From a virus (lineage: Duplodnaviria; Caudoviricetes): DNA of 54,202 bases. The stretch is from positions 1-54,202 of the IMG/VR virus record IMGVR_UViG_3300033483_000002. One strand, 5' to 3'. Within the stretch, counting starts at the first letter, position 1, and every line of letters starts with the position of its first letter. A program made the position numbers and the translations under genes. The notes under the pieces are model-generated. The model searched no databases. It saw nothing but the letters and a program-made list of their open reading frames with translations, and was not told the DNA's origin. This document shows positions 2,019-20,318 of this stretch, piece after piece.

Positions 2019-2403
2019 TGAAAATCATGAATATTTTGGAATGTATTTCGAAGTAAGAAATGCAATGATTACTTATATTTGCAATTTGAATATAGATTAT
2101 TTTTTTGAATTTCGTTATCATCAATGTGAAGATATGTTAGGTAATAAGGAAATTAAAAAAGCGGAAAAGTCTTTCTATCGATTCAGAGAAACCTTTCTTA
2201 CTGCAAAAGAATTAAATGCGGAATTCTATATTTATCAAGGGAAATATGGCGAAAGAGTCCCAGTGTTTAAATACGGTTATTTTTCATTTTGTTTTTATCC
2301 CGATACGGAAAGATGGAAAGCCTTTCATTTACATATTGATTCATTAAAATTTAACTTTAATAATAAACAGGAGCTTTTAAATTGGATGCACGGACCTTCT
2401 TAA
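1999..2403 (+). CDS. Hypothetical protein
   Basis: 134-aa ORF overlapping neighbours, GAAGGA RBS. Confidence 0.6.
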   Translation: MYIKVIDENHEYFGMYFEVRNAMITYICNLNIDYFFEFRYHQCEDMLGNKEIKKAEKSFYRFRETFLTAKELNAEFYIYQGKYGERVPVFKYGYFSFCFYPDTERWKAFHLHIDSLKFNFNNKQELLNWMHGPS

Positions 2404-2891
2404 ATAATATATTAACTGTTGACACTGGTGAAGCTACGGGTTGGGCTTATTGGTACGGAACTAAATTTCCGGAAACAGGAGAAATAAAATGTCCTTCAAA
2501 ATTGCTGAAAGATCATTTTCTAATGAGAAATTATATGACTGATGCTTTTAATATTCTTTTATATGAAATAAGTAAACATAAGTCTTTATCAATTGTATAT
2601 CTTGAAGGAACGCAAGCTTATAATTCAAGTATTTCTATTGCTGCAATCAAGAAAGGTTCTCTTTTTGAACTATCATATCTTGTCGGAAGGTATGAACAAG
2701 TTTGTGCAGATAATGGTCTTGACTGTGAAATAAAAAATGCTCCTGAATGGAAAGGGCAAATGACAAAAGAAGCAACAGCTGCAAAAATAAAAATTCTTAA
2801 TGGAATGACTTATCCCAGTGTTCATATAACCGATGCTGTTGGATTTGGTTTCGGAATTATGAAAATGTTACAATGGGAAAAAAGGAAATAA
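2382..2891 (+). CDS. RuvC-like Holliday junction resolvase (RNase H fold)
   Basis: ILTVDTGEATGWA, VYLEG, PEWKG, TDAVG acidic motif pattern of phage RuvC-like proteins. Confidence 0.75.
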   Translation: MDARTFLNNILTVDTGEATGWAYWYGTKFPETGEIKCPSKLLKDHFLMRNYMTDAFNILLYEISKHKSLSIVYLEGTQAYNSSISIAAIKKGSLFELSYLVGRYEQVCADNGLDCEIKNAPEWKGQMTKEATAAKIKILNGMTYPSVHITDAVGFGFGIMKMLQWEKRK

Positions 2892-2964
2892 TTAATCGTT
2901 TAATTACGTATAATAACTAGTTGTATGCCATGTCAATTTTCTTTTGAATTATAAGGGGCGCAAT

Positions 2965-3222
2965 ATGATCATTGGTACTGGTAAAGAACTTGTTTCGTTT
3001 GCGGAACGGCATGGAGCTATTATATCTCAGCACATTTGGGAAGCATTAACCGACTTGGATAAATGCGCCCCTAAATCTGTGGTAGAAAATTGCCACAGCA
3101 CACAACAGCGCTATGCCAAAATTGCCGCTGAACTTGAACAGTGCGCTGTGGATATGAACAGCGATAAACTTATTCCGATAGTTAGTAACCTTAACGAGTG
3201 GGCGCGGCAACTTCGGCAGTAG
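2965..3222 (+). CDS. Cassette 1 hypothetical protein
   Basis: AAGGGG RBS then ATG 2965; ends RQLRQ inside the right arm of attC-like site 1. Confidence 0.7.
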   Translation: MIIGTGKELVSFAERHGAIISQHIWEALTDLDKCAPKSVVENCHSTQQRYAKIAAELEQCAVDMNSDKLIPIVSNLNEWARQLRQ

Positions 3223-3236
3223 CGCAAACGTTGGCA
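3100..3236 (+). repeat. attC-like site 1
   Basis: ACACAAC-A-GCGCTA-TGCC-AAAA-TTGCCGC ... GCGGCAA-CTTC-GGCA-G-TAGCGC-AAAC-GTTGGCA. Confidence 0.8.
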
Positions 3237-3291
3237 AAAATAACCGGCGAGTCTTTTATTATAGGCCACACTTTTCGAAAGGAAACATTTT

Positions 3292-3558
3292 ATGCGCAAG
3301 CAATTTGAGATGACACCCGATGAGCTTAAGGAGCTTTTGGAATCATGCAAACCTGTTCCGATGATTATGTTGCAGTGCGGAACACCTCACTCTCCACAAG
3401 AAAACGCTAACCGTGCGTGGCAGTCGCTCGGAAATAAAAGAGGTTTCGTTTGGGATACCGTTCAACCTGTTCCCGGTTTGGGAATGTCATTTTTCACAGC
3501 AGAGGAATGCGCGGCGGAACAAGTGGAATCGCCGGTTACTTCTGCCAACAAGACATAG
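3292..3558 (+). CDS. Cassette 2 hypothetical phage protein
   Basis: AAAGGA RBS; 88 aa (PQENANRAWQSLG..GF.WDTV.P); stop lies in the left arm of site 2. Confidence 0.75.
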   Translation: MRKQFEMTPDELKELLESCKPVPMIMLQCGTPHSPQENANRAWQSLGNKRGFVWDTVQPVPGLGMSFFTAEECAAEQVESPVTSANKT

Positions 3559-3606
3559 CAGTTCACTTCGTCAATTGGAAACTGCTGCTATGCCAGTCCG
3601 TTGCAC
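3543..3606 (+). repeat. attC-like site 2
   Basis: TGCCAAC-AAGA-CATAGCAGTT ... AACTGC-TGC-TATG-CCAGTCC-GTTGCAC. Confidence 0.7.
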
Positions 3607-3641
3607 GCAATTTTGCGGCGACCATTTTGGAGGCAGTGAGG

Positions 3642-3908
3642 ATGCATACAGTTAATTTTGAATTAAACAATAGACTTATAAGGGCAACATTAGAATGTTC
3701 TCCTGAAGAATGGTCGCGTATTCTCACTGCGGTACAAGGGGAGCGCCGCAAAACAGTTCGGGCGAAGCGCCCCGCGCAACACACGCAGCCGAAAATTTGC
3801 CAGCACCACCGGTATGGTACTAAATGTGTGTTCAATAGGGAGTGGAACGGTATCAAAATTATGTGCTCTCACAAGCCATGTGCTGTCAAACTTCCGGCGA
3901 GTGCGTGA
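3642..3908 (+). CDS. Cassette 3 hypothetical protein (Cys/His-rich C-terminus)
   Basis: GGAGG RBS upstream of ATG 3642 (MHTVNFEL...); track start 3450 would cross the cassette boundary. Confidence 0.65.
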   Translation: MHTVNFELNNRLIRATLECSPEEWSRILTAVQGERRKTVRAKRPAQHTQPKICQHHRYGTKCVFNREWNGIKIMCSHKPCAVKLPASA

Positions 3909-3919
3909 GCACGTTGGTG
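3774..3919 (+). repeat. attC-like site 3
   Basis: GCGCAAC-A-CACGCA-GCCG-AAAA-TTTGCCAGCAC ... GTGCTGTCAAA-CTTC-CGGC-GAG-TGCGTG-AGCAC-GTTGGTG. Confidence 0.8.
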
Positions 3920-4055
3920 TCAATAAATTTTGCTCTTTTAATTATAATCGGGGCGATAGAATGGCAGTAGTAGTGCGGTCGCGCCAAACGAGCCTGTGGG
4001 TGTAATCCCCAAGCATTTTCGCCCTCTTTACATTATGGTGGCAAAATTTACATGC

Positions 4056-4111
4056 CACCAACAGGCGCAGCCCGACATTAAAACGATTGGGCGTGTGCCA
4101 TGACGTTAGAA
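4056..4111 (+). repeat. attC-like site 4
   Basis: CACCAAC-A-GGCGCA-GCCC ... GGGC-G-TGTGCC-ATGAC-GTTAGAA. Confidence 0.75.
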
Positions 4112-4150
4112 GAAACTCCGGTTGCTCCGGAACGAATTAGAGGTAGCGCA

Positions 4151-4396
4151 ATGTCAATACAAATGAAAAGGTGTAAAAAACACGGTTTGTGCAAACACAA
4201 ACTTATTCCCTTTTGCGAACTGTGCGCTACTGAATATTGGGAATCCGCTCCCTCCGTATCTTCTAACAGTCAAAGCGATGAAATTATCGCTGACATTAAG
4301 GAAGTGGTGCAGTCGTGGTTTAAATGTAACGATGATCTTTCGCATAGAGAATGTGATATACTAAACAGTGTTGTCAAATGTTATAAGAGGCGATAA
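4151..4396 (+). CDS. Cassette 5 hypothetical Cys/His-rich protein
   Basis: GAGG RBS, ATG 4151; CKKH..CKH...CELC. Confidence 0.65.
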   Translation: MSIQMKRCKKHGLCKHKLIPFCELCATEYWESAPSVSSNSQSDEIIADIKEVVQSWFKCNDDLSHRECDILNSVVKCYKRR

Positions 4397-4423
4397 CTTC
4401 ACGCATTTGGCAACACGTTGGTT
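4261..4423 (+). repeat. attC-like site 5
   Basis: TTCTAAC-A-GTCAAA-GCG-ATGAAA-TTATCGC ... GCGATAA-CTTCA-CGC-A-TTTGGC-AACAC-GTTGGTT. Confidence 0.8.
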
Positions 4424-4464
4424 GAAATGCCGGTTTTGAAAACCTTTAATTATAGGGGCGCGCA

Positions 4465-4992
4465 ATGAAAGCTGAAAGTGCAATGTTTACAATCACTATA
4501 GATAATCGCTTTTTAGAAGTAAACGCTTTAATTACCGAACGTGAGGGGATGGTTGCCGAAAATCGCTTCTGGCGTGAACGGGGTGAAGAACCGCATTATA
4601 CTATCGAGCATTTTCGCGAGACAGCAAAGAAGATGCGCGCCCTGAAAACTGAGGAAACAAAACCGGCACATCAACCAACCAGCATACATTTGTCAAACGT
4701 TGCACGCAATTGGCAATTCACAGTATTGGAGGTTTTAATGCTTGACAGTGATTTAAATGCGGTAGAACAGTTCATTATAAAAACATCAGATTATGGTCCT
4801 TTGTTATGTGCGTTTTATCGCATTAAAAAAGTGGCTTTGGAATCTTGCCAACAGTCCGGCGAAGCGCCCGTGCAACAGCTAAAGGCTGAAATTGCCGCTC
4901 TTGCAAATAAGATTGATCTTGCTTGGACGGCATGTGATTTTAATGAACATCATCGATTAACGGAGCGAATGCGGCAACTATCAGCCGTTTAG
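4465..4992 (+). CDS. In-frame fusion of cassette 6 and cassette 7 genes (second start ATG 4738)
   Basis: AGGGG RBS at first start; GGAGG RBS and in-frame ATG at 4738 follow the collapsed site 6; ends RQLSAV. Confidence 0.7.
   Translation: MKAESAMFTITIDNRFLEVNALITEREGMVAENRFWRERGEEPHYTIEHFRETAKKMRALKTEETKPAHQPTSIHLSNVARNWQFTVLEVLMLDSDLNAVEQFIIKTSDYGPLLCAFYRIKKVALESCQQSGEAPVQQLKAEIAALANKIDLAWTACDFNEHHRLTERMRQLSAV
4673..4705 (+). repeat. Collapsed (33 bp) attC-like site 6
   Basis: AACCAAC ... AAAC-GTTGCAC retained, inner stem missing. Confidence 0.6.
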
Positions 4993-5005
4993 CAACACGT
5001 TGTAA
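4870..5005 (+). repeat. attC-like site 7
   Basis: GTGCAAC-A-GCTAAA-GGCTGA-AA-TTGCCGC ... GCGGCAA-CTA-TCAGCC-G-TTTAGC-AACAC-GTTGTAA. Confidence 0.8.
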
Positions 5006-5017
5006 ATAGGAGCGCAA

Positions 5018-5263
5018 ATGATCGAACAGTTTCATAATTTAAAATCATGGGCACCGGATAATCAAGAGTTGGCCCTTAAAGTAAATGAGGTTATTTGCGC
5101 TCTGAATTCAGTTGAACTCGCTCAACAGCATCTAACAGGCAATAACACGGCGGAAGCCTTGCCCAAAGTGGAAATTACGCCTTGTGGAGATGCTAACTGT
5201 TCTTTCGTAAAGGTATACCATAAGTGTAAGGGGGTATCTTGCCCTCAATTTAAATCGGCGTAA
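5018..5263 (+). CDS. Cassette 8 hypothetical protein (C-terminal Cys cluster)
   Basis: AGGAG RBS, 81 aa. Confidence 0.65.
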   Translation: MIEQFHNLKSWAPDNQELALKVNEVICALNSVELAQQHLTGNNTAEALPKVEITPCGDANCSFVKVYHKCKGVSCPQFKSA

Positions 5264-5289
5264 CTTCTGTTATTGCCGATCCGTTGTTT
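5130..5289 (+). repeat. attC-like site 8 (left arm interrupted by about 23 nt)
   Basis: ATCTAAC-A-GGCAATAACA-[insert]-GAAATTACGCC ... GGCGTAACTTC-TGTTATTGCC-GATCC-GTTGTTT. Confidence 0.7.
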
Positions 5290-5324
5290 GCAATTTCGCT
5301 CTAAAATTTGATTGGAGGTTTGCC

Positions 5325-5558
5325 ATGACGGGCGAATGTCAATTAGCGATACGAGCGTTAGATAATTCAAACATATGTTATGTGCGCGACCTTTGGGAAG
5401 CATGGCAAACAGTTAAGGCGGAACTCGCTCAACTGTCGCATAACACAGGCAACCCGAAATTGCCTTGTCAAAAGTGTGCAATTCCAGATCCTTTCAGTTC
5501 ACTCTGGAATAAATTTTGGAATTTTTGCCCATGGTGTGGACGGCAACTTCGGGCGTAG
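5325..5558 (+). CDS. Cassette 9 protein with C-terminal zinc ribbon
   Basis: GGAGG RBS; CQKC...FCPWCG; ends RQLRA. Confidence 0.7.
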   Translation: MTGECQLAIRALDNSNICYVRDLWEAWQTVKAELAQLSHNTGNPKLPCQKCAIPDPFSSLWNKFWNFCPWCGRQLRA

Positions 5559-5573
5559 CCGGAACCGTTATAC
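5438..5573 (+). repeat. attC-like site 9
   Basis: GCATAAC-ACA-GGC-AA-CCCGAAA-TTGCC ... GGCAA-CTTCGGG-CGTA-GCC-GGAACC-GTTATAC. Confidence 0.75.
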
Positions 5574-5620
5574 GAAAAATTGCTTTTAAATATATTATAA
5601 ATTTTTTACTAAGAGGTTTT

Positions 5621-5848
5621 ATGAGTAGTCGGTTGTCAATTGGTAAAATGATTAGATCGTGTTATTTACTATTAATGTCGTTTTTGTTATATATTTCTAC
5701 TTTCGGTTACGTGACGAATATGGTTAACTTTGCCAAGTGTGATTTCGAGACACCGTGCAATGCCGAGATATGGTGTGGCGTTGGTATTATTATTCCACCA
5801 ATAGGAATTGTGGAAGGGTTAATCAGCATTCGTAACGGTAAAAAATAA
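5621..5848 (+). CDS. Cassette 10 small membrane protein
   Basis: GAGG RBS, ATG 5621; two hydrophobic segments flanking CDFETPCNAE. Confidence 0.7.
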   Translation: MSSRLSIGKMIRSCYLLLMSFLLYISTFGYVTNMVNFAKCDFETPCNAEIWCGVGIIIPPIGIVEGLISIRNGKK

Positions 5849-6019
5849 ATTAAGGTACACACAAATAATCGTATAACAGACGCAGGTGTTACAGACTCGG
5901 ACGAAATCCGATGGATTGACATTGGTTGTGATGACATCATTGATGTGGAGTTCACTTATGATAGTGATAATCGAGAGGTTTCAGTTTCGTAATGCCATTG
6001 AATAAAAGAAGTAATTAAT

Positions 6020-6544
6020 ATGATTTTCAACTGTAAACAATGCAGTCTTCATAAATTCAGGAAAAATATTGTACAAGGAAGGGGTTCTCTTCCAGCGGAC
6101 TTATGTATAGTAGGTGAGGCACCAGGAAAAACAGAAGATATGCTTTGTGAAGCATTTATAGGTCAAGCTGGACAACTACTTAATCAAATAATTTATGATA
6201 CTTGTAATAATGTTGGTATTGTCCCTTTAATTTATTTTACAAATACAGTTTTATGCAGACCAACAGATCGAATTGGAGGGGATAACAGGCAACCGACGAA
6301 AGAAGAAGTATTTCTTTGCAGTCAGAATGTACAAGAAATAATTGCAAAAACAAAAGCAAAAGAGTTCATCCTTGCTGGAGATATTGCAGAAAAGTATATG
6401 AAGAGTTCAATCAAACATTATACCAAAATAATGCATCCTTCTGCAATATTACGAAATGGCGGAAAATCAAGCGGATATTATCTTGAAACAGTTAGGAAAT
6501 TGGAAACAGTTTTCAGGAGGTTGAAGAATGAAGAAAGAAAATAG
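6020..6544 (+). CDS. Uracil-DNA glycosylase, family 4 (Fe-S)
   Basis: CxxC N-terminus, VGEAPG, F.GQAG.LL, TNTVLCRP, NRQP, HPSAILR. Confidence 0.9.
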   Translation: MIFNCKQCSLHKFRKNIVQGRGSLPADLCIVGEAPGKTEDMLCEAFIGQAGQLLNQIIYDTCNNVGIVPLIYFTNTVLCRPTDRIGGDNRQPTKEEVFLCSQNVQEIIAKTKAKEFILAGDIAEKYMKSSIKHYTKIMHPSAILRNGGKSSGYYLETVRKLETVFRRLKNEERK

Positions 6545-10482: not shown

Positions 10483-12471
10483 ATGATAATGTTCAATATT
10501 CAACCATTGATTGCACGATATAAAAAAATAATGGATTTTGTTTCGCTCGACGTAGAAACAACCGGTTTCTATCCATATTTAGGAGATAGGATTTTTTCTT
10601 TTTGCTGGGGAAATGATCTTACATGCATGGTATTGCGATTAGATAAACCTATTATTAAAGCAATAAGCACTAATGATTTACTGAAATGTATTACAACTGA
10701 TAATAATATTTTTGATTATATGCAAGATAGATCATGTAAATCAGTTGAAAGCAATTTTCAATTATTAAAAGATATGTTTTCAAAAGGTTACAGAAATCAA
10801 GGTTTAATAATTCACAATTGCAAGTTTGAAAAAGGATTCTGCAAAGTTCATGGAATAGAATTTCCTGAAGATTTAATAGTACATGATACAATGTTGCAAT
10901 CAAGGGAATTAGATAATCAATCACCGTCTCACAGCCTTGATAGATTATGCTATAAATTAGGAGTTGATCCACTGGGGAAAATAGCAGATTGTGACAAGAA
11001 AGTTGAAGAAGAAAATAAAAAATTAGGTGGTTATCAATTTGTAAATGTAAATCTTATGACCGAATATCAGCTATATGATGCTGTACGGCCTCTTCTTCTT
11101 CATTCCGTTTTTTGGCCTGAAATCCTAAAGAGTGAAAAACTTACAGAAGATTATATATGGGAAGTGAAAACAGCTCTTGATACACAAGAAATTGAAGAAG
11201 CAGGAGTTCCGATACATAGAGAAAATTGTGAAAATCTTATGAAGAAGCTTGATAAAGAAATTGAAGCAATGCAGCACGAATCATTTAATATCTTGGAAGA
11301 ATACATTAATCTTTCTTCCGATGATCAGATAAGAAGAATTCTTTTCAAGAAACTACAATTTCCGATAGTTGCTTTTTCTGAAAACGGTACACCTAAAACC
11401 GACAAAGATACAATTTTCAATCTGAAGGAAACAATCAATCATCCTATTCTTGATCTGATAATAAAATGGAGATCATATACGGATGGAAAAGGAAACGTAG
11501 AGTCATATTTAAAAGTTGCCGATGAAAAAGGAAAGGTGCATACCACTCTTAATACTTGTCAAGCTCGCACTCATAGACAATCCTCTTCACATCCACCAAT
11601 GCACGGAGTATCGAAAGAAGAGGCAATGAAGAATCCTTTTCCAGTGGCTGCAAGGCAATGCTTTCGATGTCCTGAAAATGCAATTCTTTTTCTTCCTGAT
11701 TATTCCGGAATAGAAATGCGATTAATAGCAGAAGCATCAGGAGAAGAGGAGTTGATTAAAATGTTTCTTGATGACCCGATTAATGCAGATCCGCATACTA
11801 TTGCAGCGGAATTATTTTATGGTGATTTATTTACAGATAGAGCACAATGTTTTGATTTTTTCATAAATAAAGATCCTTTGAATAAAAGTATAATAAATAA
11901 AATAGGTATTGATGCTGCATATAAAAAGTTCAGAAAGATAATGAGAGGTTCTGCAAAAAATGCTTCATTCGCAAAAGCATATATTGCAAATCTAATAAAA
12001 GTTTCCAAAACGTTAATGCTTACAGTTGAAGAAGCAGAACCCGGTTACTGGAGATACAAAGAAAGATGGCCAAAAGTATTTGATTATAGTAAAACGGTTG
12101 CACATGAAGCGAAAGAACAGGGATTTGTTGAAACACCTTTTGGTGTACAAATGAGTGCTCCAAGAGATCAACTTTACATTTTAGGAAATTATAAAATTCA
12201 ACATATGGCGGCAAAGATTCTTAAAAGGGGGATTGTCAGATGCACGGATTATTTTCACAAGGAATTTAATAGCGAAGTAAAAATAATTCTTGATATTCAC
12301 GATGAATTGATAATAAGTTTTCCAAGAAAGTTCATGAGCAGAAGGGAAGATTTCATAAGTAATGTCACTCGAATGATGACGGAATGTGAAGAAATAAGAG
12401 TGCCACTTTCAGTAGAGTGGAAATTTACAACTACAACATGGGATAAAGCAAGGAAAGTGGAAATAAAATGA
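10483..12471 (+). CDS. polA: DNA polymerase family A with 3'-5' exonuclease
   Basis: ExoI DVETTG, ExoII HNCKFE, ExoIII YQLYDA; motif A DYSGIEMR, motif B RGSAKNASF...Y, motif C IHDEL. Confidence 0.92.
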   Translation: MIMFNIQPLIARYKKIMDFVSLDVETTGFYPYLGDRIFSFCWGNDLTCMVLRLDKPIIKAISTNDLLKCITTDNNIFDYMQDRSCKSVESNFQLLKDMFSKGYRNQGLIIHNCKFEKGFCKVHGIEFPEDLIVHDTMLQSRELDNQSPSHSLDRLCYKLGVDPLGKIADCDKKVEEENKKLGGYQFVNVNLMTEYQLYDAVRPLLLHSVFWPEILKSEKLTEDYIWEVKTALDTQEIEEAGVPIHRENCENLMKKLDKEIEAMQHESFNILEEYINLSSDDQIRRILFKKLQFPIVAFSENGTPKTDKDTIFNLKETINHPILDLIIKWRSYTDGKGNVESYLKVADEKGKVHTTLNTCQARTHRQSSSHPPMHGVSKEEAMKNPFPVAARQCFRCPENAILFLPDYSGIEMRLIAEASGEEELIKMFLDDPINADPHTIAAELFYGDLFTDRAQCFDFFINKDPLNKSIINKIGIDAAYKKFRKIMRGSAKNASFAKAYIANLIKVSKTLMLTVEEAEPGYWRYKERWPKVFDYSKTVAHEAKEQGFVETPFGVQMSAPRDQLYILGNYKIQHMAAKILKRGIVRCTDYFHKEFNSEVKIILDIHDELIISFPRKFMSRREDFISNVTRMMTECEEIRVPLSVEWKFTTTTWDKARKVEIK

Positions 12472-13241
12472 ATATTGAATTGAATAAAATATATCATGGT
12501 GATTGTTTGGAAGTCATGAAAAGCATTAAAGATAAATCTATTGATATGATTCTTTGTGATTTACCTTATGGTACTACTGCTTGTAAATGGGATGTCGAGA
12601 TTCCTTTTGAACCTTTATGGAAACAATATCTACGAATTATAAAAGATAAAAGTGCAATTATTCTTACATCAATACAGCCTTTTACAAGTTTTTTAATTAA
12701 TTCAAATATTAAATATTTTAAATGTGAATATATATGGCAAAAAACAAAAGCGACAAATTATATAAAAGCAAATGAAATGCCAATGAAATATCATGAAAAT
12801 ATTTTATTATTTGGAAAGCATAAAATTAATTATTATCCTATAATGATAAAAGGAAAACCATATATTAAAGAAGCAAAATCAGAATCAAATATTAAATGTA
12901 TATTTAAAGATACAAGAAAAATAGGTAGTATAAATGTAAATGATGGATATAGATTTCCTTCATCTATTATAAGAATATCAAATGACAATCATTTTTCTTT
13001 ACATCCTACACAAAAACCAGTTCCACTTTTTGAATATTTAATTAAAACATATACAAAAGAAAATGAAGTTGTTCTTGATAACTGTATAGGAAGTGGCACA
13101 ACTGCAATCGCATGCATTAATACTAATAGACAATATATAGGCATAGAAAAAGATGATCACTATTTTGAAGTTTGCAATGAAAGAATCAGGAAACATTTAT
13201 TATTAAGAAAGTATCAACAGAAATGGAAGGTTTATAAATGA
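12468..13241 (+). CDS. DNA amino-methyltransferase, beta class (probably m6A)
   Basis: DLPY, HPTQKP, LDNCIGSGTT. Confidence 0.92.
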   Translation: MNIELNKIYHGDCLEVMKSIKDKSIDMILCDLPYGTTACKWDVEIPFEPLWKQYLRIIKDKSAIILTSIQPFTSFLINSNIKYFKCEYIWQKTKATNYIKANEMPMKYHENILLFGKHKINYYPIMIKGKPYIKEAKSESNIKCIFKDTRKIGSINVNDGYRFPSSIIRISNDNHFSLHPTQKPVPLFEYLIKTYTKENEVVLDNCIGSGTTAIACINTNRQYIGIEKDDHYFEVCNERIRKHLLLRKYQQKWKVYK

Positions 13242-14361: not shown

Positions 14362-16483
14362 TAATTTGATAGCATTCAAACAGCATGGTTTCACTCCTTC
14401 CAGTGTGTCAGGAGAAAATCAAGTTGTTGGAAATTGCATTTTTTGTAACGGAAAATCAAAAAATCATAAGGAAGGTTCATTTTTTATTAATGTCGAAAGT
14501 AAAATGTGGGATTGTAAACTATGCGGAAAAGAAGGAGGATATAAAACTTTCATAACTGAATTGATTGAACAAGGAAAAGAAAATTTTAAGGGAACTGATG
14601 CTCTATGGTTGGCAAAAAATAGAGGATTGAAAACAAAGACATTGATTGATAACAATGTAGGTTATAATCCTTTAATGAACCATTATATAGTTCCAGCAAT
14701 TGATATTAATGGGAAAGAAATTTACAGTTTAAAGATATTTTCATGGTCAAAAAACGGAACAAAACATCGAAGTATTACCGCTGGAATGAGCACCGCTTGC
14801 CTGGGTTGGGAAAAATTATCAAAGCCTTTCAATGTATGTTATATTCTTGAAGGAGAGTGGGATTACTTCACATGGTATGAAATGAGTAAGTCAATTAATT
14901 TTTCGCTTGATACAATTTTTATTAGTTTACCACAAGCAACCGGGTTTAAAGATGATTATGTCAATTATTTTAAGAATAAAGACGTAAAGGCTTTATTGCA
15001 TAATGATTATGATCGACAAGTTGGTAATAAAATGGTTTTTGGTGCTGGTATTCAAGGAATGATAAAGATATATAATAAACTTTCTCAAGTGGCAAGCCGT
15101 CTAAATTTTATTTATTGGCCGGAAGATAAAAAAGATGGTTATGATGTTCGTGATTTATATAATGATTTTGACAATAATGCAAGAAAAACATTTGACTTTA
15201 TTGATAATAATCTTCAAAAGTATCCTCCTAAAATAAAACTACCTTCTTCTGATAAGCAAAAATTAATAAATAAACCAATAATACAAATTTCTCAAATACC
15301 ATTAAATCAACGATACACTGGAAGCGGAATTGATTGTATTGATGTTTACAATATATACGAAAAATGGTTGTTACTTCCGTCTACTGATTTGATTGATGTA
15401 TCTATTGGTTGTGTAATTGGCAATAGGCTTCCTGGTGATCCTATATGGTTGCAGCTTGTTGGTCCTTCCGGTTGTGCAAAATCGGTAATATGCATGGCAC
15501 TTGATTGCCATTTTGATATAGAGGCAATTGATACATTGACGCCAGCAACTCTAATTAGTGGTAGTACTACTGCAGGAGGTGGAGATCCTTCTCTACTTCC
15601 AAAGTTGCATGGAAGAATACTTGATATTAAGGATTTGACAACTATCTATGAAATGAATTCAGTTGCAAGAAATGAAATATTCGGGATATTTCGTTCTGCA
15701 TTCGATGGACATTACTCAAAACCGTTCGGAAACGGTATGATGACGCGTTCCGGGAACAGCAAATTCGGTTTTATTGCCGGCGTTACACATGCAATTGAGC
15801 AATACACTGAAGGAGATACGGCATTAGGCACAAGATTTCTTTTGTATAAAATTCAGTATGGTAATGTGCATAATATTTTAAAACAGATTGACAAAAATCT
15901 TGATGAAGAATTCCTGAATAATAAGAGTATGAAAGCAGAACTTAAAGATGCTTTTAAAAGAGCAATTGACTTTAACTATAATATTCAAAGTATAGAACTT
16001 GATGATAAAATCCTTGAACAATTGCGATACTTAAGTATTATCATTGAAATGACAAGGGGAACAGTATTGCAGGATCATTTTACGAAAGAAATTACTTATA
16101 GTCCGATGACTGCATTACCAACAAGAAGCTATGTACAATTAAGAAAAGAATTGACAGGAATAATGCTATTCAGGAAAGTAAATGTTCCTGATAAAGAAAG
16201 TATGAAGATAATTTGTGATATAGCATCGGGGACTATACCTCTTTCCAGAGAAAAAATATTATCAATTTTATGGAAAGCAAGATTGAAAGGTGAGGAAAAA
16301 ATAGAGTTAGGGATGTTAAGTAAAATATTGAAGCTTCCATCTATAACTTGTCAACGACAAATTGACAAGTTGGTTGCACTTGGAACGGTTGAAAAGATTA
16401 ATTTGTCATCAATAAAAACTGCTTATAAACTAACGGAACAGATTATTGAAGCAATTGAAAAGGGAGAAATGTATTCAAAATGA
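14333..16483 (+). CDS. Primase-helicase: Zn finger + TOPRIM + MCM-like AAA+ + winged helix
   Basis: CIFC...CKLC; ILEGEWD, HNDYD, DVRD; LVGPSGCAKS; GTRF; C-terminal helical region. Confidence 0.8.
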   Translation: MLKQEIISHSNLIAFKQHGFTPSSVSGENQVVGNCIFCNGKSKNHKEGSFFINVESKMWDCKLCGKEGGYKTFITELIEQGKENFKGTDALWLAKNRGLKTKTLIDNNVGYNPLMNHYIVPAIDINGKEIYSLKIFSWSKNGTKHRSITAGMSTACLGWEKLSKPFNVCYILEGEWDYFTWYEMSKSINFSLDTIFISLPQATGFKDDYVNYFKNKDVKALLHNDYDRQVGNKMVFGAGIQGMIKIYNKLSQVASRLNFIYWPEDKKDGYDVRDLYNDFDNNARKTFDFIDNNLQKYPPKIKLPSSDKQKLINKPIIQISQIPLNQRYTGSGIDCIDVYNIYEKWLLLPSTDLIDVSIGCVIGNRLPGDPIWLQLVGPSGCAKSVICMALDCHFDIEAIDTLTPATLISGSTTAGGGDPSLLPKLHGRILDIKDLTTIYEMNSVARNEIFGIFRSAFDGHYSKPFGNGMMTRSGNSKFGFIAGVTHAIEQYTEGDTALGTRFLLYKIQYGNVHNILKQIDKNLDEEFLNNKSMKAELKDAFKRAIDFNYNIQSIELDDKILEQLRYLSIIIEMTRGTVLQDHFTKEITYSPMTALPTRSYVQLRKELTGIMLFRKVNVPDKESMKIICDIASGTIPLSREKILSILWKARLKGEEKIELGMLSKILKLPSITCQRQIDKLVALGTVEKINLSSIKTAYKLTEQIIEAIEKGEMYSK

Positions 16484-17367
16484 ATATATCTCTTTTAACA
16501 GATGCACCAAAACACAATTTAGCTCTTATGAAAATATCTACTTATCATAAAGAAAAAGGTGATATTGTAAAACTTAATTCGAGAATTAATATTGATTATA
16601 CATATGTTAGTTTACTTTTTAATCAATCAATTGGAATATTAAAAGGTGATGTTTATGGCGGACCTGCAATTATTGACAGTGTATTAATTGATGATATTGA
16701 AATTTGCAAGCCTGATTATTCACTTTTTAATTTAGATTATTCATTAGGTTTTACATATAGACCTTGTTTCCGTAATTGTTCTTTTTGTAAAGTACCATTA
16801 ATGCATCATCCTGATAAAGAGCATCATTCAATATTTGAATTTCATGATATTAAATTTTCCAAAATTTGTTTATTAAACAATAATACTTTTGCAGATAAAT
16901 ACTGGAAATTGACATTTGAAGAAATATGGAGCGAAAACCTTTCAATTATTGATGAAAACGGTTATGATGTTCGATTAATTGATGAAGAAAAAGCGGAAGT
17001 TTTAAAGGCAACAAAGTTTGAAACTAAAATTCATTTTGCATGGGATCAAATGATTGATGAAGAAAAAATTATTCGAGGAATTAATATTCTTAAAAAGTTT
17101 AAAGTTCATGGCACTTTTTATGTAATGGTTGGATTTAATACAACAGAAGATGAAGATATTCATAGATGTCAAGTATTAAAAGACAATGGATTTGATATTT
17201 ATATTATGCCATTTAAGAAAACATGGTATGGAAGAGCATTTAAAAGATTTATTGATTCTTTTATGTGGAGAAAGTACAAATATATAAAAGATGCATGGAA
17301 TGATTATTTACCATTTAAGCGAAAAAATCAAATAGAAAGATTTAAGGTTTATAAATTAAAGTTTTAG
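16480..17367 (+). CDS. Radical SAM protein
   Basis: CFRNCSFC (CxxxCxxC), HNLALMKIS, PDYSL, FAWD, YVMVGF. Confidence 0.8.
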   Translation: MNISLLTDAPKHNLALMKISTYHKEKGDIVKLNSRINIDYTYVSLLFNQSIGILKGDVYGGPAIIDSVLIDDIEICKPDYSLFNLDYSLGFTYRPCFRNCSFCKVPLMHHPDKEHHSIFEFHDIKFSKICLLNNNTFADKYWKLTFEEIWSENLSIIDENGYDVRLIDEEKAEVLKATKFETKIHFAWDQMIDEEKIIRGINILKKFKVHGTFYVMVGFNTTEDEDIHRCQVLKDNGFDIYIMPFKKTWYGRAFKRFIDSFMWRKYKYIKDAWNDYLPFKRKNQIERFKVYKLKF

Positions 17368-17960
17368 TTGCTTGTGAATATACTGGTTTAGTACGTGATG
17401 CTTTTATAAGAAAAGGTCATGATGCTATATCCTGTGATTTCTTTAAGAGTGAAAGAGAAGGTCCACATTATCAAGGAAACGTATTCAATATTATCAATAA
17501 TGGATTTGATTTAATGATTGCACACCCACCGTGTACTTATCTTTCCAATGCCGGCTTTCATTTAAGTTTGAAAGATTCTTTACGTATGGAAAGATCAAAA
17601 AAGGCGTTCAAGTTTTTCATGGATTTGTATAATTCTGATATAGAAAAAATAGCAATTGAGAATCCTGTTGGAATTGTATCAACATGGTTTCAAAAACCTG
17701 ATCAGATAATAAATCCTTATAATTTTGGAAATATGGAACGAAAGAGAACATGCTTATGGTTGAAAAATCTTCCTTTACTTAAAATAAATAATACAGAAAT
17801 GCCAACTGCATATAATAGTATAATTAGAAAATCAGGAAGAGATAAAGGAAAAATATATAATTATTATTGGCATGATAAAACAAGATCAGGACACGAAAGA
17901 TCAAGAACCTTTCAATGTATTGCTGATGCTTTCGCTGAACAATGGGGAAATATAAAATGA
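17355..17960 (+). CDS. Phage C5-cytosine methyltransferase-like protein (ATT start or lost ATG)
   Basis: (I)KVLVACEYTG.VRDAF...GHDA.SCD, HPPC, ENP, RTCLWL, RSRTF.GIA-like; track begins only at 17514. Confidence 0.75.
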   Translation: MKVLVACEYTGLVRDAFIRKGHDAISCDFFKSEREGPHYQGNVFNIINNGFDLMIAHPPCTYLSNAGFHLSLKDSLRMERSKKAFKFFMDLYNSDIEKIAIENPVGIVSTWFQKPDQIINPYNFGNMERKRTCLWLKNLPLLKINNTEMPTAYNSIIRKSGRDKGKIYNYYWHDKTRSGHERSRTFQCIADAFAEQWGNIK

Positions 17961-18787
17961 TATCTCTTGATACTATCTATAATGAGAACTGCTTAATAAC
18001 TCTTTCCAGAATGCCGGATAAATTCATTGATATGACATTGACTTCTCCTCCTTATGATGGAAGAAGGTCATATGAAGGAGAACATAAATTCGATTTTGAA
18101 GAATTCAAAGCAATTGCAAAGGAACTTTATAGAGTGACAAAAGATGGTGGTGTTGTTGTATGGGTTGTTAATGATGAAACGATAAATTATTGTGAGTCAC
18201 TTACATCATTCAAGCAAGCTATCTATTTTGTTGAAGAATGCAAGTTTAATCTATTGGATACTATGATTTATTATAAGAAATCAACTCTAGTAGCAATGCC
18301 ACCTATTTTAAAAGTAAGATATAATCCTTCTTTTGAGTATATGTTTATATTTAGTAAAGGAATACCAAAAACATTTAATTCTATTAAAATAAAATGTATT
18401 AATGCAGGAAGTCTAAATAATCATTCAACAAGTCGTCAAGTAAACGGAACTTTAAAAAGAGAAATTTTTATTACTCAAGAAACAAAAGTTAAAAATAATG
18501 TTTGGGAAATATTACCTAATGACAATACAGACAATAAGGAAAATGATTCGTTGCATCCGGCCGTATTTCCGAAACATCTGGTTATTGATCACATTAAATC
18601 ATGGTCAAATGAAGGAGATATTGTATATGATCCGTTTTCAGGAAGTGGGACTGTTGCTAAATGCTGTAAATTGATGAATCGAAAATATATAGGTTCTGAA
18701 ATTGTAAAGAAATACTGGTTGTTGGGAAATATAACTCTTAAAAGAACGGATGATAGAAAGAAGGGAAGTGAAATATGGAAAATTTAA
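17957..18787 (+). CDS. DNA amino-methyltransferase, beta class (SPPY, probably m4C)
   Basis: TSPPY, HPAVFP, DPFSGSGT; ATGA overlap start. Confidence 0.9.
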   Translation: MISLDTIYNENCLITLSRMPDKFIDMTLTSPPYDGRRSYEGEHKFDFEEFKAIAKELYRVTKDGGVVVWVVNDETINYCESLTSFKQAIYFVEECKFNLLDTMIYYKKSTLVAMPPILKVRYNPSFEYMFIFSKGIPKTFNSIKIKCINAGSLNNHSTSRQVNGTLKREIFITQETKVKNNVWEILPNDNTDNKENDSLHPAVFPKHLVIDHIKSWSNEGDIVYDPFSGSGTVAKCCKLMNRKYIGSEIVKKYWLLGNITLKRTDDRKKGSEIWKI

Positions 18788-19694: not shown

Positions 19695-20318
19695 ATGGCA
19701 ACTAAAATTAAGAAAACAATAGAACAGTATGCAATTCCTTCAGAGGATATGAAGAAAAATCTTGAGTTAGTCCCTGTTAATAGTATTAAACTTTTTAGTG
19801 GAAATACTAAAAAACATACTGATTCTAATGTGAAGAAACTCGCTGAAGGATTAAAAATTTATGGGCAATGGCGTCCAGCAGTAGTATGGAGAGAAGATAA
19901 CGAAATTAGAGTTGGAAATGGAATGTATCTTGCAATATCTAAAATTCTCAAGTGGAAGAATATTTGGGTGTTGTGGAGAGATTTTCTAAATAAAGCAGAA
20001 GCGGATCTTGCAGGCGCTTTTGATAATAAAAGCAATGAATGGTCTGAAAATGACGATGATGCACTGCGGGAACTGTTTACCAGAGAAGATATTATAGAGT
20101 TCACTGGAAAAAGCAAGGAACGTTTGCAGGAATTTTCAGGATTTACGGAAGATGATTTAAAGGATTTATTTCTTGAAAAGGATTTGAAGAAAATCAATGA
20201 TGAAAATGGAATGTGCACGGTAAAAATAGAGTGCAGAAAAGATGAAGCGGAAGAATTGAAGTCAACTCTTTCCCAGTGGTCTGTAAATTCGGGATTTGAA
20301 GGATTGATAGTTCATTAA
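19695..20318 (+). CDS. ParB/Srx N-terminal domain protein
   Basis: N.KKH, YGQWRPAVV, VGNG, DNKSNE.S. Confidence 0.7.
   Translation: MATKIKKTIEQYAIPSEDMKKNLELVPVNSIKLFSGNTKKHTDSNVKKLAEGLKIYGQWRPAVVWREDNEIRVGNGMYLAISKILKWKNIWVLWRDFLNKAEADLAGAFDNKSNEWSENDDDALRELFTREDIIEFTGKSKERLQEFSGFTEDDLKDLFLEKDLKKINDENGMCTVKIECRKDEAEELKSTLSQWSVNSGFEGLIVH

Follow-up and report, generated by a model that had tools for sequence, protein, structure and literature searches.

A probable integron-like cassette array in a phage genome, linked through related loci to Xer-type recombinases

A ten-unit array in a phage genome

The stretch of DNA analyzed here (the window) is the whole of one IMG/VR virus record, a linear sequence of 54,202 bp that is ∼92% complete. 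Positions 2920-5877 of the window are probably an array of ten gene cassettes (c1 to c10) of an integron-like gene-capture system of phages, present here as a copy without a recombinase and linked elsewhere to recombinases of the Xer type. In the mechanism we propose, a cassette would span the distance between two successive GTT boxes and would end in a hairpin-forming site made up of an AAC box, an inner palindrome, and the GTT box. Strand exchange would take place in GTT, and the opening of a closed circle on insertion would turn the outer 3′ arm of the site (∼21 nt, starting TT) into the cassette's own 5′ end, which would stay complementary to the 21 nt ending in its own AAC box. Of the two strands, the bottom one would fold, and a Xer-type enzyme without the insertion specific to integron integrases (IntI) would recombine it into an attI-like junction at the array head with the layout ..ATAAC, 2-5 nt, GTT. 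Such a target is suggested by the conserved left ends of arrays. The array of the window would then be a recombinase-less block of 3.1 kb between a resolvase-like gene and a uracil-DNA-glycosylase superfamily (UDG) gene, its cassettes encoding small proteins expressed in the early gene direction of the phage.

Cassette starts pair with the cassettes' own AAC boxes

An inverse core AAC and a core GTT are present in all ten units. Their positions and pairs had been given by the sequence-only reading, an earlier inspection of the letters in which each unit's AAC box was noticed to match its own 5′ GTT box, and they are correct for all ten. In a permutation test, every AAC box was compared with every GTT box, leaving out the invariant GTT/AAC triplets, over 200,000 permutations. 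Over 6 nt, own pairs scored 4.5, as against 2.3 for pairs with the downstream GTT box and 2.3 for all non-own pairs, and one permutation of the 200,000 reached the own sum. The corresponding scores were 7.1, 3.9, and 3.8 over 12 nt and 11.5, 5.4, and 5.9 over 20 nt, with 0 of 200,000 permutations reaching the own sum at either length. Own-end complementarity is therefore higher than that of random pairings, the comparison by which the sequence-only reading had proposed that its claim be judged. The own box was the best partner, in some cases tied, in 8 of the 10 rows of the box matrix, compared with 1 of 9 (tied) for the downstream box, and downstream pairing was no better than random. The earlier remark that the downstream match is poorer, with c8 and c9 as exceptions, is borne out by the same matrix, in which the c9 box fits the downstream GTT better than its own (6 vs 3 of 9).

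The complementarity is also longer than the 8-10 nt originally noticed, reaching ∼21 nt in several units, with inverted repeats of 22-24 nt in c1, c2, and c6. When the whole 3.3 kb was scanned blindly with the first 24 nt of each unit, the own AAC box came out as the best partner in six of the ten units (c1 19/24, c2 21/24, c4 15/24 and tied, c5 15/24, c6 20/24, c10 16/24). Circularization and folding in silico, which had been suggested as a check, agreed for most units: the own junction was the most stable of ten alternatives in four of nine units and the second in three, and it ranked sixth of ten in c8 and eighth in c9.

The same rule was found outside the window. Of 14 viral hits to a probe that covered the two inner arms, at least 8 were true sites, a first motif probe having given chance matches in 15 of 16. 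A 20-nt right-arm motif was present in 102 stretches of a metagenome collection; in one genome each of 185,579 species it was found at 4 places, all in metagenome bins, of which two are arrays on short phage-like contigs and two apparent chance hits. A blastn search with the array against 50,697 GenBank phage records gave no match. At least three phage backbones unrelated to one another carry arrays (contigs G000, G001, and G008), and G008 is a 100% complete phage of 55.5 kb carrying an array of ∼5 kb, to which, among 13 window proteins, there was one weak methylase hit. Of 78 distinct unit starts, 20 have a partner of at least 15/20 within 600 nt downstream and 2 have one upstream, and each of the 20 downstream partners has AAC at its end (Wilcoxon p = 7e-7). 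Arm pairs number 5.5 per 10 kb in array loci against a background of 0.59 per 10 kb beside generic recombinases, and none were found elsewhere in the window. Between unrelated phages, the inner arms are near-identical over 28-31 nt while the gene bodies differ.

Repeats of other kinds were seen as well. Control loci with generic integrases contain runs of the 7-nt GTTCAAG/GTTCAGG that give false own-arm pairs (L171 7292-7481 and 9806-9915; L172 365-889, 8383-8572, and 10897-11006), and the start of contig G001 (L019 1-360) holds a run of ∼60-nt tandem repeats inside an open reading frame (ORF).

Unit borders and the search for circles

Unit borders lie at the GTT boxes in three independent comparisons. 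In locus L019, part of the unrelated phage contig G001, a 329-nt unit is present in exact tandem with its borders inside AAC|GTT. Cassette c7 is homologous from GTT box to GTT box with a unit of locus L024, the neighboring sequence being unrelated on both sides; the stems of the two are near-invariant, the coding center has diverged, and the boxes differ by a compensatory C:G to T:A change (GTTGCACG/CGTGCAAC in c7, GTTGTACG/CGCACAAC in L024). In locus L106, one unit occurs twice with another between them (X-Y-X), and identity runs from GGAC|GTT to GAAC GTTG. The cut itself would fall somewhere inside AAC|GTT. A crossover at the internal AAC box, prompted by the position of the extra bases described below, was considered and rejected: the borders in L019, c7/L024, and L106 are all at GTT, the upstream tails differ in all three, and the ORFs would be split.

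The sequence-only reading had taken the paired ends as the footprint of circular cassettes. Circles are indeed the best explanation for GTT borders combined with own-end pairing; the circles themselves went unseen in our search, which covered the assembled contigs of three runs (X1, X2, and X3) of one study, X1 being a possible source sample of the window. Different neighbors of the window's units came to light in short, low-depth contigs of X2 and X3: those of X2 covering 4101-4419 have c5 preceded by a different, attI-like sequence, one of X3 carries the end of c2 followed by a different unit, and a c3-type site was also seen with a c1-like unit behind it. Such arrangements are compatible with shuffling, if weakly so.

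Site anatomy and the folded strand

Statistics for the outer arms were taken from 142 distinct arm pairs in oriented loci, 138 of them outside the window, counting outward from the G of GTT, and those for the inner arms from 49 sites outside the window. The junction of a closed unit is one long imperfect hairpin. Outer positions 1-9 are paired, position 10 is mostly A opposite A, and position 11 is A opposite C in 81% of pairs; positions 12-21 are Watson-Crick paired in 80-97% with all four bases in use (covariation), and from position 22 pairing stops, the pairing extending 18 nt past the box. Toward the loop, 42 of the 49 sites, and likewise the window sites, have a bulge of 3-4 nt on the GTT side only, and beyond it come 6-7 bp, one to three extra bases, a stem of 12-16 bp, and the loop. 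By size the sites fall into two classes, with 27 sites of 40-79 nt and 22 of 100-199 nt. In the window, inner palindromes could be aligned for the nine sites with a following GTT, the 19-nt tail of c6 being too short for a convincing one.

Mismatches on the coding strand are far more often A·C than G·T, both in the outer arms (201 vs 32, or 85 vs 30 without position 11) and in the inner arms (99 vs 35). Because A·C on the coding strand is a G·T wobble on the other, the structure belongs to the bottom DNA strand and not to the mRNA; the folded strand is the bottom strand, opposite to the genes. For 9 of the 10 window sites, folding favors the bottom strand, whose mean advantage is 3.1 kcal/mol. 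No bottom-versus-top difference in fold energy was seen in the canonical control, the cassette array of Vibrio phage MK672802 (2/6), and fold energy alone therefore does not mark an attC site. Terminators and simple repeats, which the sequence-only reading had held unable to account for the pairing, can be set aside: terminator-like motifs (6 vs 3.3 expected) and promoter-like motifs (7 vs 8.4 expected) both occur at chance level, the former never at + strand unit ends and the latter never at unit starts, no T-runs stand 3′ of the hairpins, and the arms covary freely between units.

Cassette genes and a translated site

In the window, ORFs begin 3′ of the GTT arms and end ahead of the GTT that follows. 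In all, 155 distinct cassette ORFs were collected (median 80 aa), of which 84 continue beyond the AAC box for more than 30 nt. The frame ending at a conserved TGA in the right arm is open through the whole site in 51 of 53 long sites of the consensus type, with AAC in codon phase 0 in 48 of 53, while of 144 cases in the other two frames, 28 are open. The site thus codes for a C-terminal module of the form NTGSPKLP..(∼27 variable residues)..RQLRAGA, which makes up the C-terminal ∼42 aa of the cassette protein; c9 ends ..CGRQLRA and c1 ends ..ARQLRQ. The translated site adds a common tail to unrelated small proteins and could mark a shared fate of those proteins.

Most of the 150 ORFs scanned against Pfam had no family. 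The hits included six or seven DNA methyltransferases (MT-A70 twice, C5 methylase twice, Dam, and N6_N4 methylase), Lar, the Thoeris inhibitor Tad4, and a radical SAM protein, and the identifiable cassette genes across the array family are mostly counter-defence genes. Twenty-two cassette families recur across loci, mostly in the same or near-identical contigs from two collections, and neighbor counts were accordingly not used. One cassette ORF encodes an IS200-like Y1 transposase (PF01797, E = 2.8e-35) and represents either a cassette carrying an insertion sequence or an insertion sequence that landed in the array.

Recombinases at array heads

No tyrosine recombinase (PF00589) was found in the window record by a search that was positive in 14 of 14 control genomes, and the window phage has either lost its recombinase or never had one. 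In three other contigs (L035, L098, and L146), a tyrosine recombinase is encoded directly upstream of the array and co-oriented with it (Table 1). These enzymes are 30-37% identical to one another. Against the integron integrase model TIGR02249 (cut-off 265 bits), they score 149, 125, and 221 bits, each below the cut-off and each in two stretches, compared with 494 bits in one stretch for the positive control, IntIA of a Vibrio phage. Against the XerA-type model NF040815 (cut-off 220 bits), they score 202, 130, and 240 bits; only the L146 enzyme passes, and the XerA-type model is the best fit for each. All three align continuously to the XerC-like structure 4a8e and to XerA 5hxy, and they have 25 residues opposite 61 in IntI4, from which it follows that they lack the IntI-specific insertion. 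A Xer-type tyrosine recombinase of this kind, with no integron integrase insertion, is the most likely enzyme of the system.

The L035 enzyme belongs to a clade of ∼41 metagenomic proteins (47-88% identity), several of them on contigs of 36-94 kb. As a single query it found no relatives in the viral collection. A query made from the clade alignment returned generic integrases 33-38% identical from that collection, which were taken as a negative control, yet one of them, L146, carried an array. Neither of the two genome bins that hold arrays has an IntI over the cut-off.

Relation to integrons and other Xer-type systems

Integrons, the classic example of recombination that acts on folded single-stranded DNA, may have arisen from Xer-type enzymes. 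Together with clusters of attC sites lacking integron integrases (CALINs), they were reportedly treated by Cury et al. in 2016. To our knowledge, Rfam has no attC family. A smooth transition from Xer-type enzymes to integrons is argued for in PMC4792948. As outlined in parts of PMC5027507 (Nivina et al. 2016), a canonical attC site measures 57-141 nt and has its R box at the hairpin base, an unpaired spacer of 5-6 nt on each arm, and an extrahelical G and T near L″. The AAC-to-GTT spans seen here, 23-153 nt in the window and 40-199 nt elsewhere, overlap that size range. By the definition given in PMC9892861, a CALIN consists of at least two clustered attC sites with no integron integrase nearby. 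The window does contain a cluster of ten sites without an integrase; their status as attC sites depends on spacer and extra-base features that they do not have.

The control array MK672802 is described in PMC9892861 (Qi et al. 2023) as a complete integron, and its cassettes were run through the same scripts, which caught 6 sites, not necessarily adjacent. Extra bases on the AAC-side and GTT-side arms numbered 23 vs 2 in the control, 87 vs 242 in the array family, and 16 vs 48 in the window. The unpaired spacer takes up ∼4 bases on both arms in the control and lies on one arm in the array family, and the control has 1 own-arm pair of 20 nt in 13.4 kb where the array family has 5.5 per 10 kb. 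The values for the control are in line with what has been published on attC.

In their overall organization the arrays resemble integrons and CALINs: mostly single-gene, promoterless, co-oriented units end in an imperfect palindrome bounded by AAC/GTT, the crossover is at the GTT box with the first bases of a unit coming from its own site, the bottom strand is favored, recombinase-less arrays are common, and methyltransferase cassettes occur in phages. The individual sites share with attC the AAC/GTT triplets in the R box, an imperfect hairpin, a variable terminal loop whose length sets two size classes, and strand asymmetry. The array family differs in having a 21-bp outer stem beyond the crossover box, a one-sided bulge of 3-4 nt, extra bases on the opposite arm, many translated sites, sites near-absent from cellular genomes, and a linked recombinase that lacks the IntI insertion and is encoded co-oriented directly upstream rather than divergently. 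Its R box lies mid-hairpin, its spacer is on one arm only, and its single extra bases are on the R′-L′ arm. Of the marks of an integron, AAC/GTT-bounded sites with an inner palindrome and the own-end complementarity left by a GTT crossover were found, and an IntI passing TIGR02249, a two-sided spacer of 5-6 nt, and extrahelical bases on the L″ arm were not. The continuous match without the IntI insertion that marks a Xer-type enzyme was found for the linked recombinases and not in the window, and with promoter-like sites no more frequent than expected there is no sign of a T4-type promoter-stem-loop. The premise that the sequence-only reading took as established, that R′ bases sit at the 5′ end of an integrated cassette, comes from canonical integrons, and the system described here is not a canonical integron.

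Two Xer-type systems offer further points of comparison. In the case of CTX phage, host XerCD exchange one pair of strands, replication resolves the intermediate, and the whole phage genome enters the host chromosome. Acinetobacter plasmids carry pdif modules, discrete gene modules bounded by Xer-type sites in various contexts. Unlike the arrays, these modules have double-stranded XerC/XerD sites of 28 bp whose orientation alternates, and they have neither hairpin sites nor own-end complementarity. The integration of CTX phage at dif proceeds by Xer recombination of folded single-stranded DNA, according to PMC3442271; in the arrays, no dif site was identified. A Xer-family tyrosine recombinase acting on a single-stranded DNA hairpin is also the model proposed for the enzyme without the IntI domain, except that here small cassettes would enter a phage-borne array via a phage-borne Xer-type enzyme. 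In the literature searched, parts of which were available, no Xer-type phage-borne cassette system was described, which is not proof of its absence.

Alternative explanations and meaning

Several observations weigh against the array being a cassette array of this kind. The own-end rule fails for c8 and c9, c3 and c7 pair over 8 nt only, and 58 of the 78 unit starts have weak arms (<15/20), as c3 and c7-c9 do in the window. No circle junction, from a unit end to its own start, was seen in the assembled contigs of the three runs, and none of the fetched contigs is circular. Tyrosine recombinases are missing from all ten array-bearing viral records, five of which are 92-100% complete, and were present within the fetched DNA in 2 of 113 site-bearing loci; the link to a recombinase comes from three loci, as an observed association from which the activity of the enzyme is presumed. 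Cleavage would fall on the arm that carries the extra bases, opposite to the situation in canonical attC, and integron rules are not simply transferable. The G·T asymmetry could be due in part to strand-biased deamination instead of selection, the bottom strand being exposed either way. Finally, the nine cassette ORFs of the window match no known family, and a counter-defence role for its ten cassettes would be an extrapolation from relatives.

The array might instead be an ordinary CALIN, composed of canonical attC cassettes that came from bacterial chromosomal integrons and were moved by a host IntI. The general attC layout, the co-oriented genes, the favored bottom strand, and the own-end rule all fit such an origin, and in the parts of Qi et al. 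2023 (PMC9892861) that bear on it, 17 CALINs as well as integrons are reported in phages, IntI1 recombined 5 of 6 tested phage attC sites, and methyltransferase cassettes are present. One of those 17 CALINs could in principle belong to this array family, although the blastn null argues against it. We nevertheless regard an ordinary CALIN as unlikely, given how rarely the motif occurs in the genomes of cellular species, the lack of a blastn match to the array among GenBank phages, the extra bases on the GTT side where the Vibrio-type control has them on the other, the one-sided spacer, the 21-bp outer stem that is represented by one pair in the control, the sub-threshold two-stretch matches of the linked recombinases to the integrase model that IntIA matches in one, and the lack of an IntI over the cut-off in either array-holding bin. 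Slightly less probable still is that no dedicated recombinase is involved and that the site arms are short patches of homology for general or illegitimate recombination between co-infecting phages. Shuffling of this sort was reportedly proposed by Arbiol et al. in 2010 for repeated regulatory elements in T4-type phages. It would be in keeping with the viral records that have no tyrosine recombinase, with inner arms that stay near-identical while gene bodies differ, and with the 20-nt direct repeat that bounds the block in the window. It gives no reason, however, for a 5′ end that covaries with its own AAC arm over 21 nt, for a G·T pattern specific to the bottom strand, for borders precise at GTT, or for three divergent Xer-type recombinases at array heads beside a conserved junction, and promoter-like motifs are at chance level.

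A feature of the mRNA, either a long-range stem hiding the ribosome-binding site before each small gene or a terminator, is very improbable. The GTT arm does lie in the 5′ leader just upstream of the ribosome-binding site, the AAC arm is inside or at the end of the ORF, and there are hairpins between genes, but the mismatches in the mRNA sense are of the A·C kind and not of the G·U kind, the antisense DNA strand pairs well, and neither T-runs after the hairpins nor terminator-like motifs at + strand unit ends were found. Moreover, such a feature would leave the GTT borders, the tandem and dispersed exact unit copies, and the empty site described below unexplained.

A cassette array of an integron-like system thus remains the reading that we hold to be probable. 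Going beyond it, we suggest more tentatively, as a possibility that we would not yet call probable, that the arrays represent a second, phage-borne integron-like lineage, in which a Xer-type enzyme that never acquired the IntI domain or lost it acts on sites of mirror geometry that code for a shared C-terminal peptide, and which stocks phages with exchangeable counter-defence genes. If true, the lineage would be either sister to the integron ancestor or a living analogue of it, and on the phage side it would correspond to the banks of defence genes in bacterial chromosomal integrons. It would also allow a test of which features a site must have for single-strand recombination of cassettes, give a natural contrast by which to judge what the IntI domain does, and offer a mechanism by which phages trade small accessory and anti-defence genes. 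Surveys based on attC would then miss a large pool of cassettes, considering that one metagenome scan with a single 20-nt motif gave the 102 stretches mentioned above.

The locus holding the array

The backbone of the window phage encodes a portal protein, a family A DNA polymerase, a SNF2 helicase, a PD-(D/E)XK nuclease, and an AAA_24 protein, and nearly all genes of the window are on the + strand. The GC content is 0.40-0.49 within 2920-5877 and 0.27-0.35 in both flanks. The flanking genes encode a Holliday-junction-resolvase-like protein and a UDG (Table 1); a search with the resolvase-like protein found no close relatives. In a related phage (locus L020), whose polymerase is 59% identical, the site is empty: the stop codon of the resolvase-like gene, which is 49% identical to that of the window, is directly followed by the UDG start codon, and between the same two genes the window carries 3.1 kb that L020 is without. 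The sequence CGTATAATAA..AGTTGT is common to the left junction of the window and to the junction 3′ of the recombinase stop codon in L098, and the arrays in G008, L027, L028, L034, and L035 have the layout ..ATAAC, 2-5 nt, GTT at their left ends as well. Because a ∼20-nt direct repeat bounds the array and a remnant of an attachment-site junction has been kept, the array of the window probably came as a block, already without a recombinase, and the ten insertions therefore need not have taken place in this genome. The sequence-only reading had the units inserted independently as circles; that reading is supported, with the probable arrival as a block as a caveat for this phage.

Outside the array, the backbone also encodes two N6/N4 DNA methylases, a radical SAM protein, and a ParB-like nuclease or partition protein (12468-13241, 17942-18787, 16480-17367, and 19695-20318). 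The UDG gene of L020 was matched in two pieces (4950-5060 and 5811-6206) with ∼750 bp of AT-rich DNA between them, which could be an intron, an intein, or a homing-endonuclease insertion.

Table 1. Array features and flanking genes in the window, with the recombinases at array heads of other contigs. Each cassette starts at the G of its GTT, and its AAC box or arm ends at the last C of AAC; fold energies and ranks refer to the own junction among ten alternatives.
Feature	Positions	Strand	Size or parts	Evidence
Holliday-junction-resolvase-like gene, left flank	2382..2891	+	169 aa	PHROG 1770, E = 1.5e-4
Direct repeat (∼20 nt) bounding the 3.1 kb insertion, left copy	2877..2896	+		85% identical to 6000-6019
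Left junction remnant, attI-like	2897..2919	+	CGTATAATAA at 2907-2916, short AAC box 2915-2917, two bases, first GTT	
c1	2920..3229	+	GTT arm 2920-2942, ORF 2965-3222 (85 aa), AAC arm 3084-3106, long site 3107-3229	Inverted repeat 23 nt, 83%; best fold, -31.6 vs mean -26.5 kcal/mol; bottom strand 9.4 kcal/mol better than top
c2	3230..3599	+	GTT arm 3230-3253, ORF 3292-3558 (88 aa), AAC arm 3526-3549, short site 3550-3599	Inverted repeat 24 nt, 88%; -25.1 vs -10.1 kcal/mol
c3	3600..3912	+	ORF 3642-3908 (88 aa), AAC box ending 3780, long site 3781-3912	Box match GTTGCACG vs GTTGCGCG; rank 1/10; outer arm weak, 8/21
c4	3913..4104	+	192 nt, AAC arm 4039-4062, short site 4063-4104	Box match 9/10; rank 2/10
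c5	4105..4416	+	ORF 4151-4396 (81 aa, Cys-rich), AAC box ending 4267, long site 4268-4416	Box exact, 9/9
c6	4417..4698	+	GTT arm 4417-4438, ORF from 4465, AAC arm 4658-4679, 19 nt site	Inverted repeat 22 nt, 91%; -20.5 vs -3.8 kcal/mol
c7	4699..4998	+	ORF 4738-4992 (84 aa), AAC box 4869-4876, long site 4877-4998	
c8	4999..5282	+	ORF 5018-5263 (81 aa), AAC box ending 5136, long site 5137-5282	
c9	5283..5566	+	ORF 5325-5558 (77 aa), AAC box ending 5444, long site 5445-5566	
c10	5567..5877	+	GTT arm 5567-5582, ORF 5621-5848 (75 aa, hydrophobic), AAC arm 5862-5877	Inverted repeat 16 nt, 81%; box exact, 9/9
Direct repeat (∼20 nt) bounding the insertion, right copy	6000..6019	+		Repeat search and L020 junction comparison
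UDG gene, right flank	6020..6544	+	174 aa	PF03167, E = 4.9e-19
L035 recombinase			288 aa	Stop codon 18 nt before first GTT
L098 recombinase			266 aa	6 nt before first GTT
L146 recombinase			341 aa	Directly before array

Individual cassettes

The following was seen in single cassettes. The ORF of c1 reads through its long site. Cassette c4 contains no ORF of at least 40 aa and may be degenerate or non-coding. The c6 ORF has no stop codon and the c6 site measures 19 nt, so that the ORF runs in frame into that of c7 (4465-4992; a 175-aa fusion); c7 retains its own ribosome-binding site and an ATG at 4738. At the right end, the site of c10 is incomplete, as 5878-5999 has a left inner arm and no recognizable right arm. 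Relatives of single parts were found elsewhere: an ORF related to that of c7 is present in L098, the c8 site is 73% identical to a site in L027 while the gene body is not, and the AAC arm and left inner arm of c9 are 93% identical to L030 over 46 nt.

The leader TTAATTATA(A)GGGGCGC..ATG lies immediately ahead of the start codon in c1, c4, and c6 and in unit gA of contig G001 (window 2943-2965, 3936-3958, and 4443-4464; L019 3045-3070). Locus L035 contains, at 2398-2570, a short unit without an evident ORF that includes a tRNA-like stretch (..GGTTCGATCCCC..).

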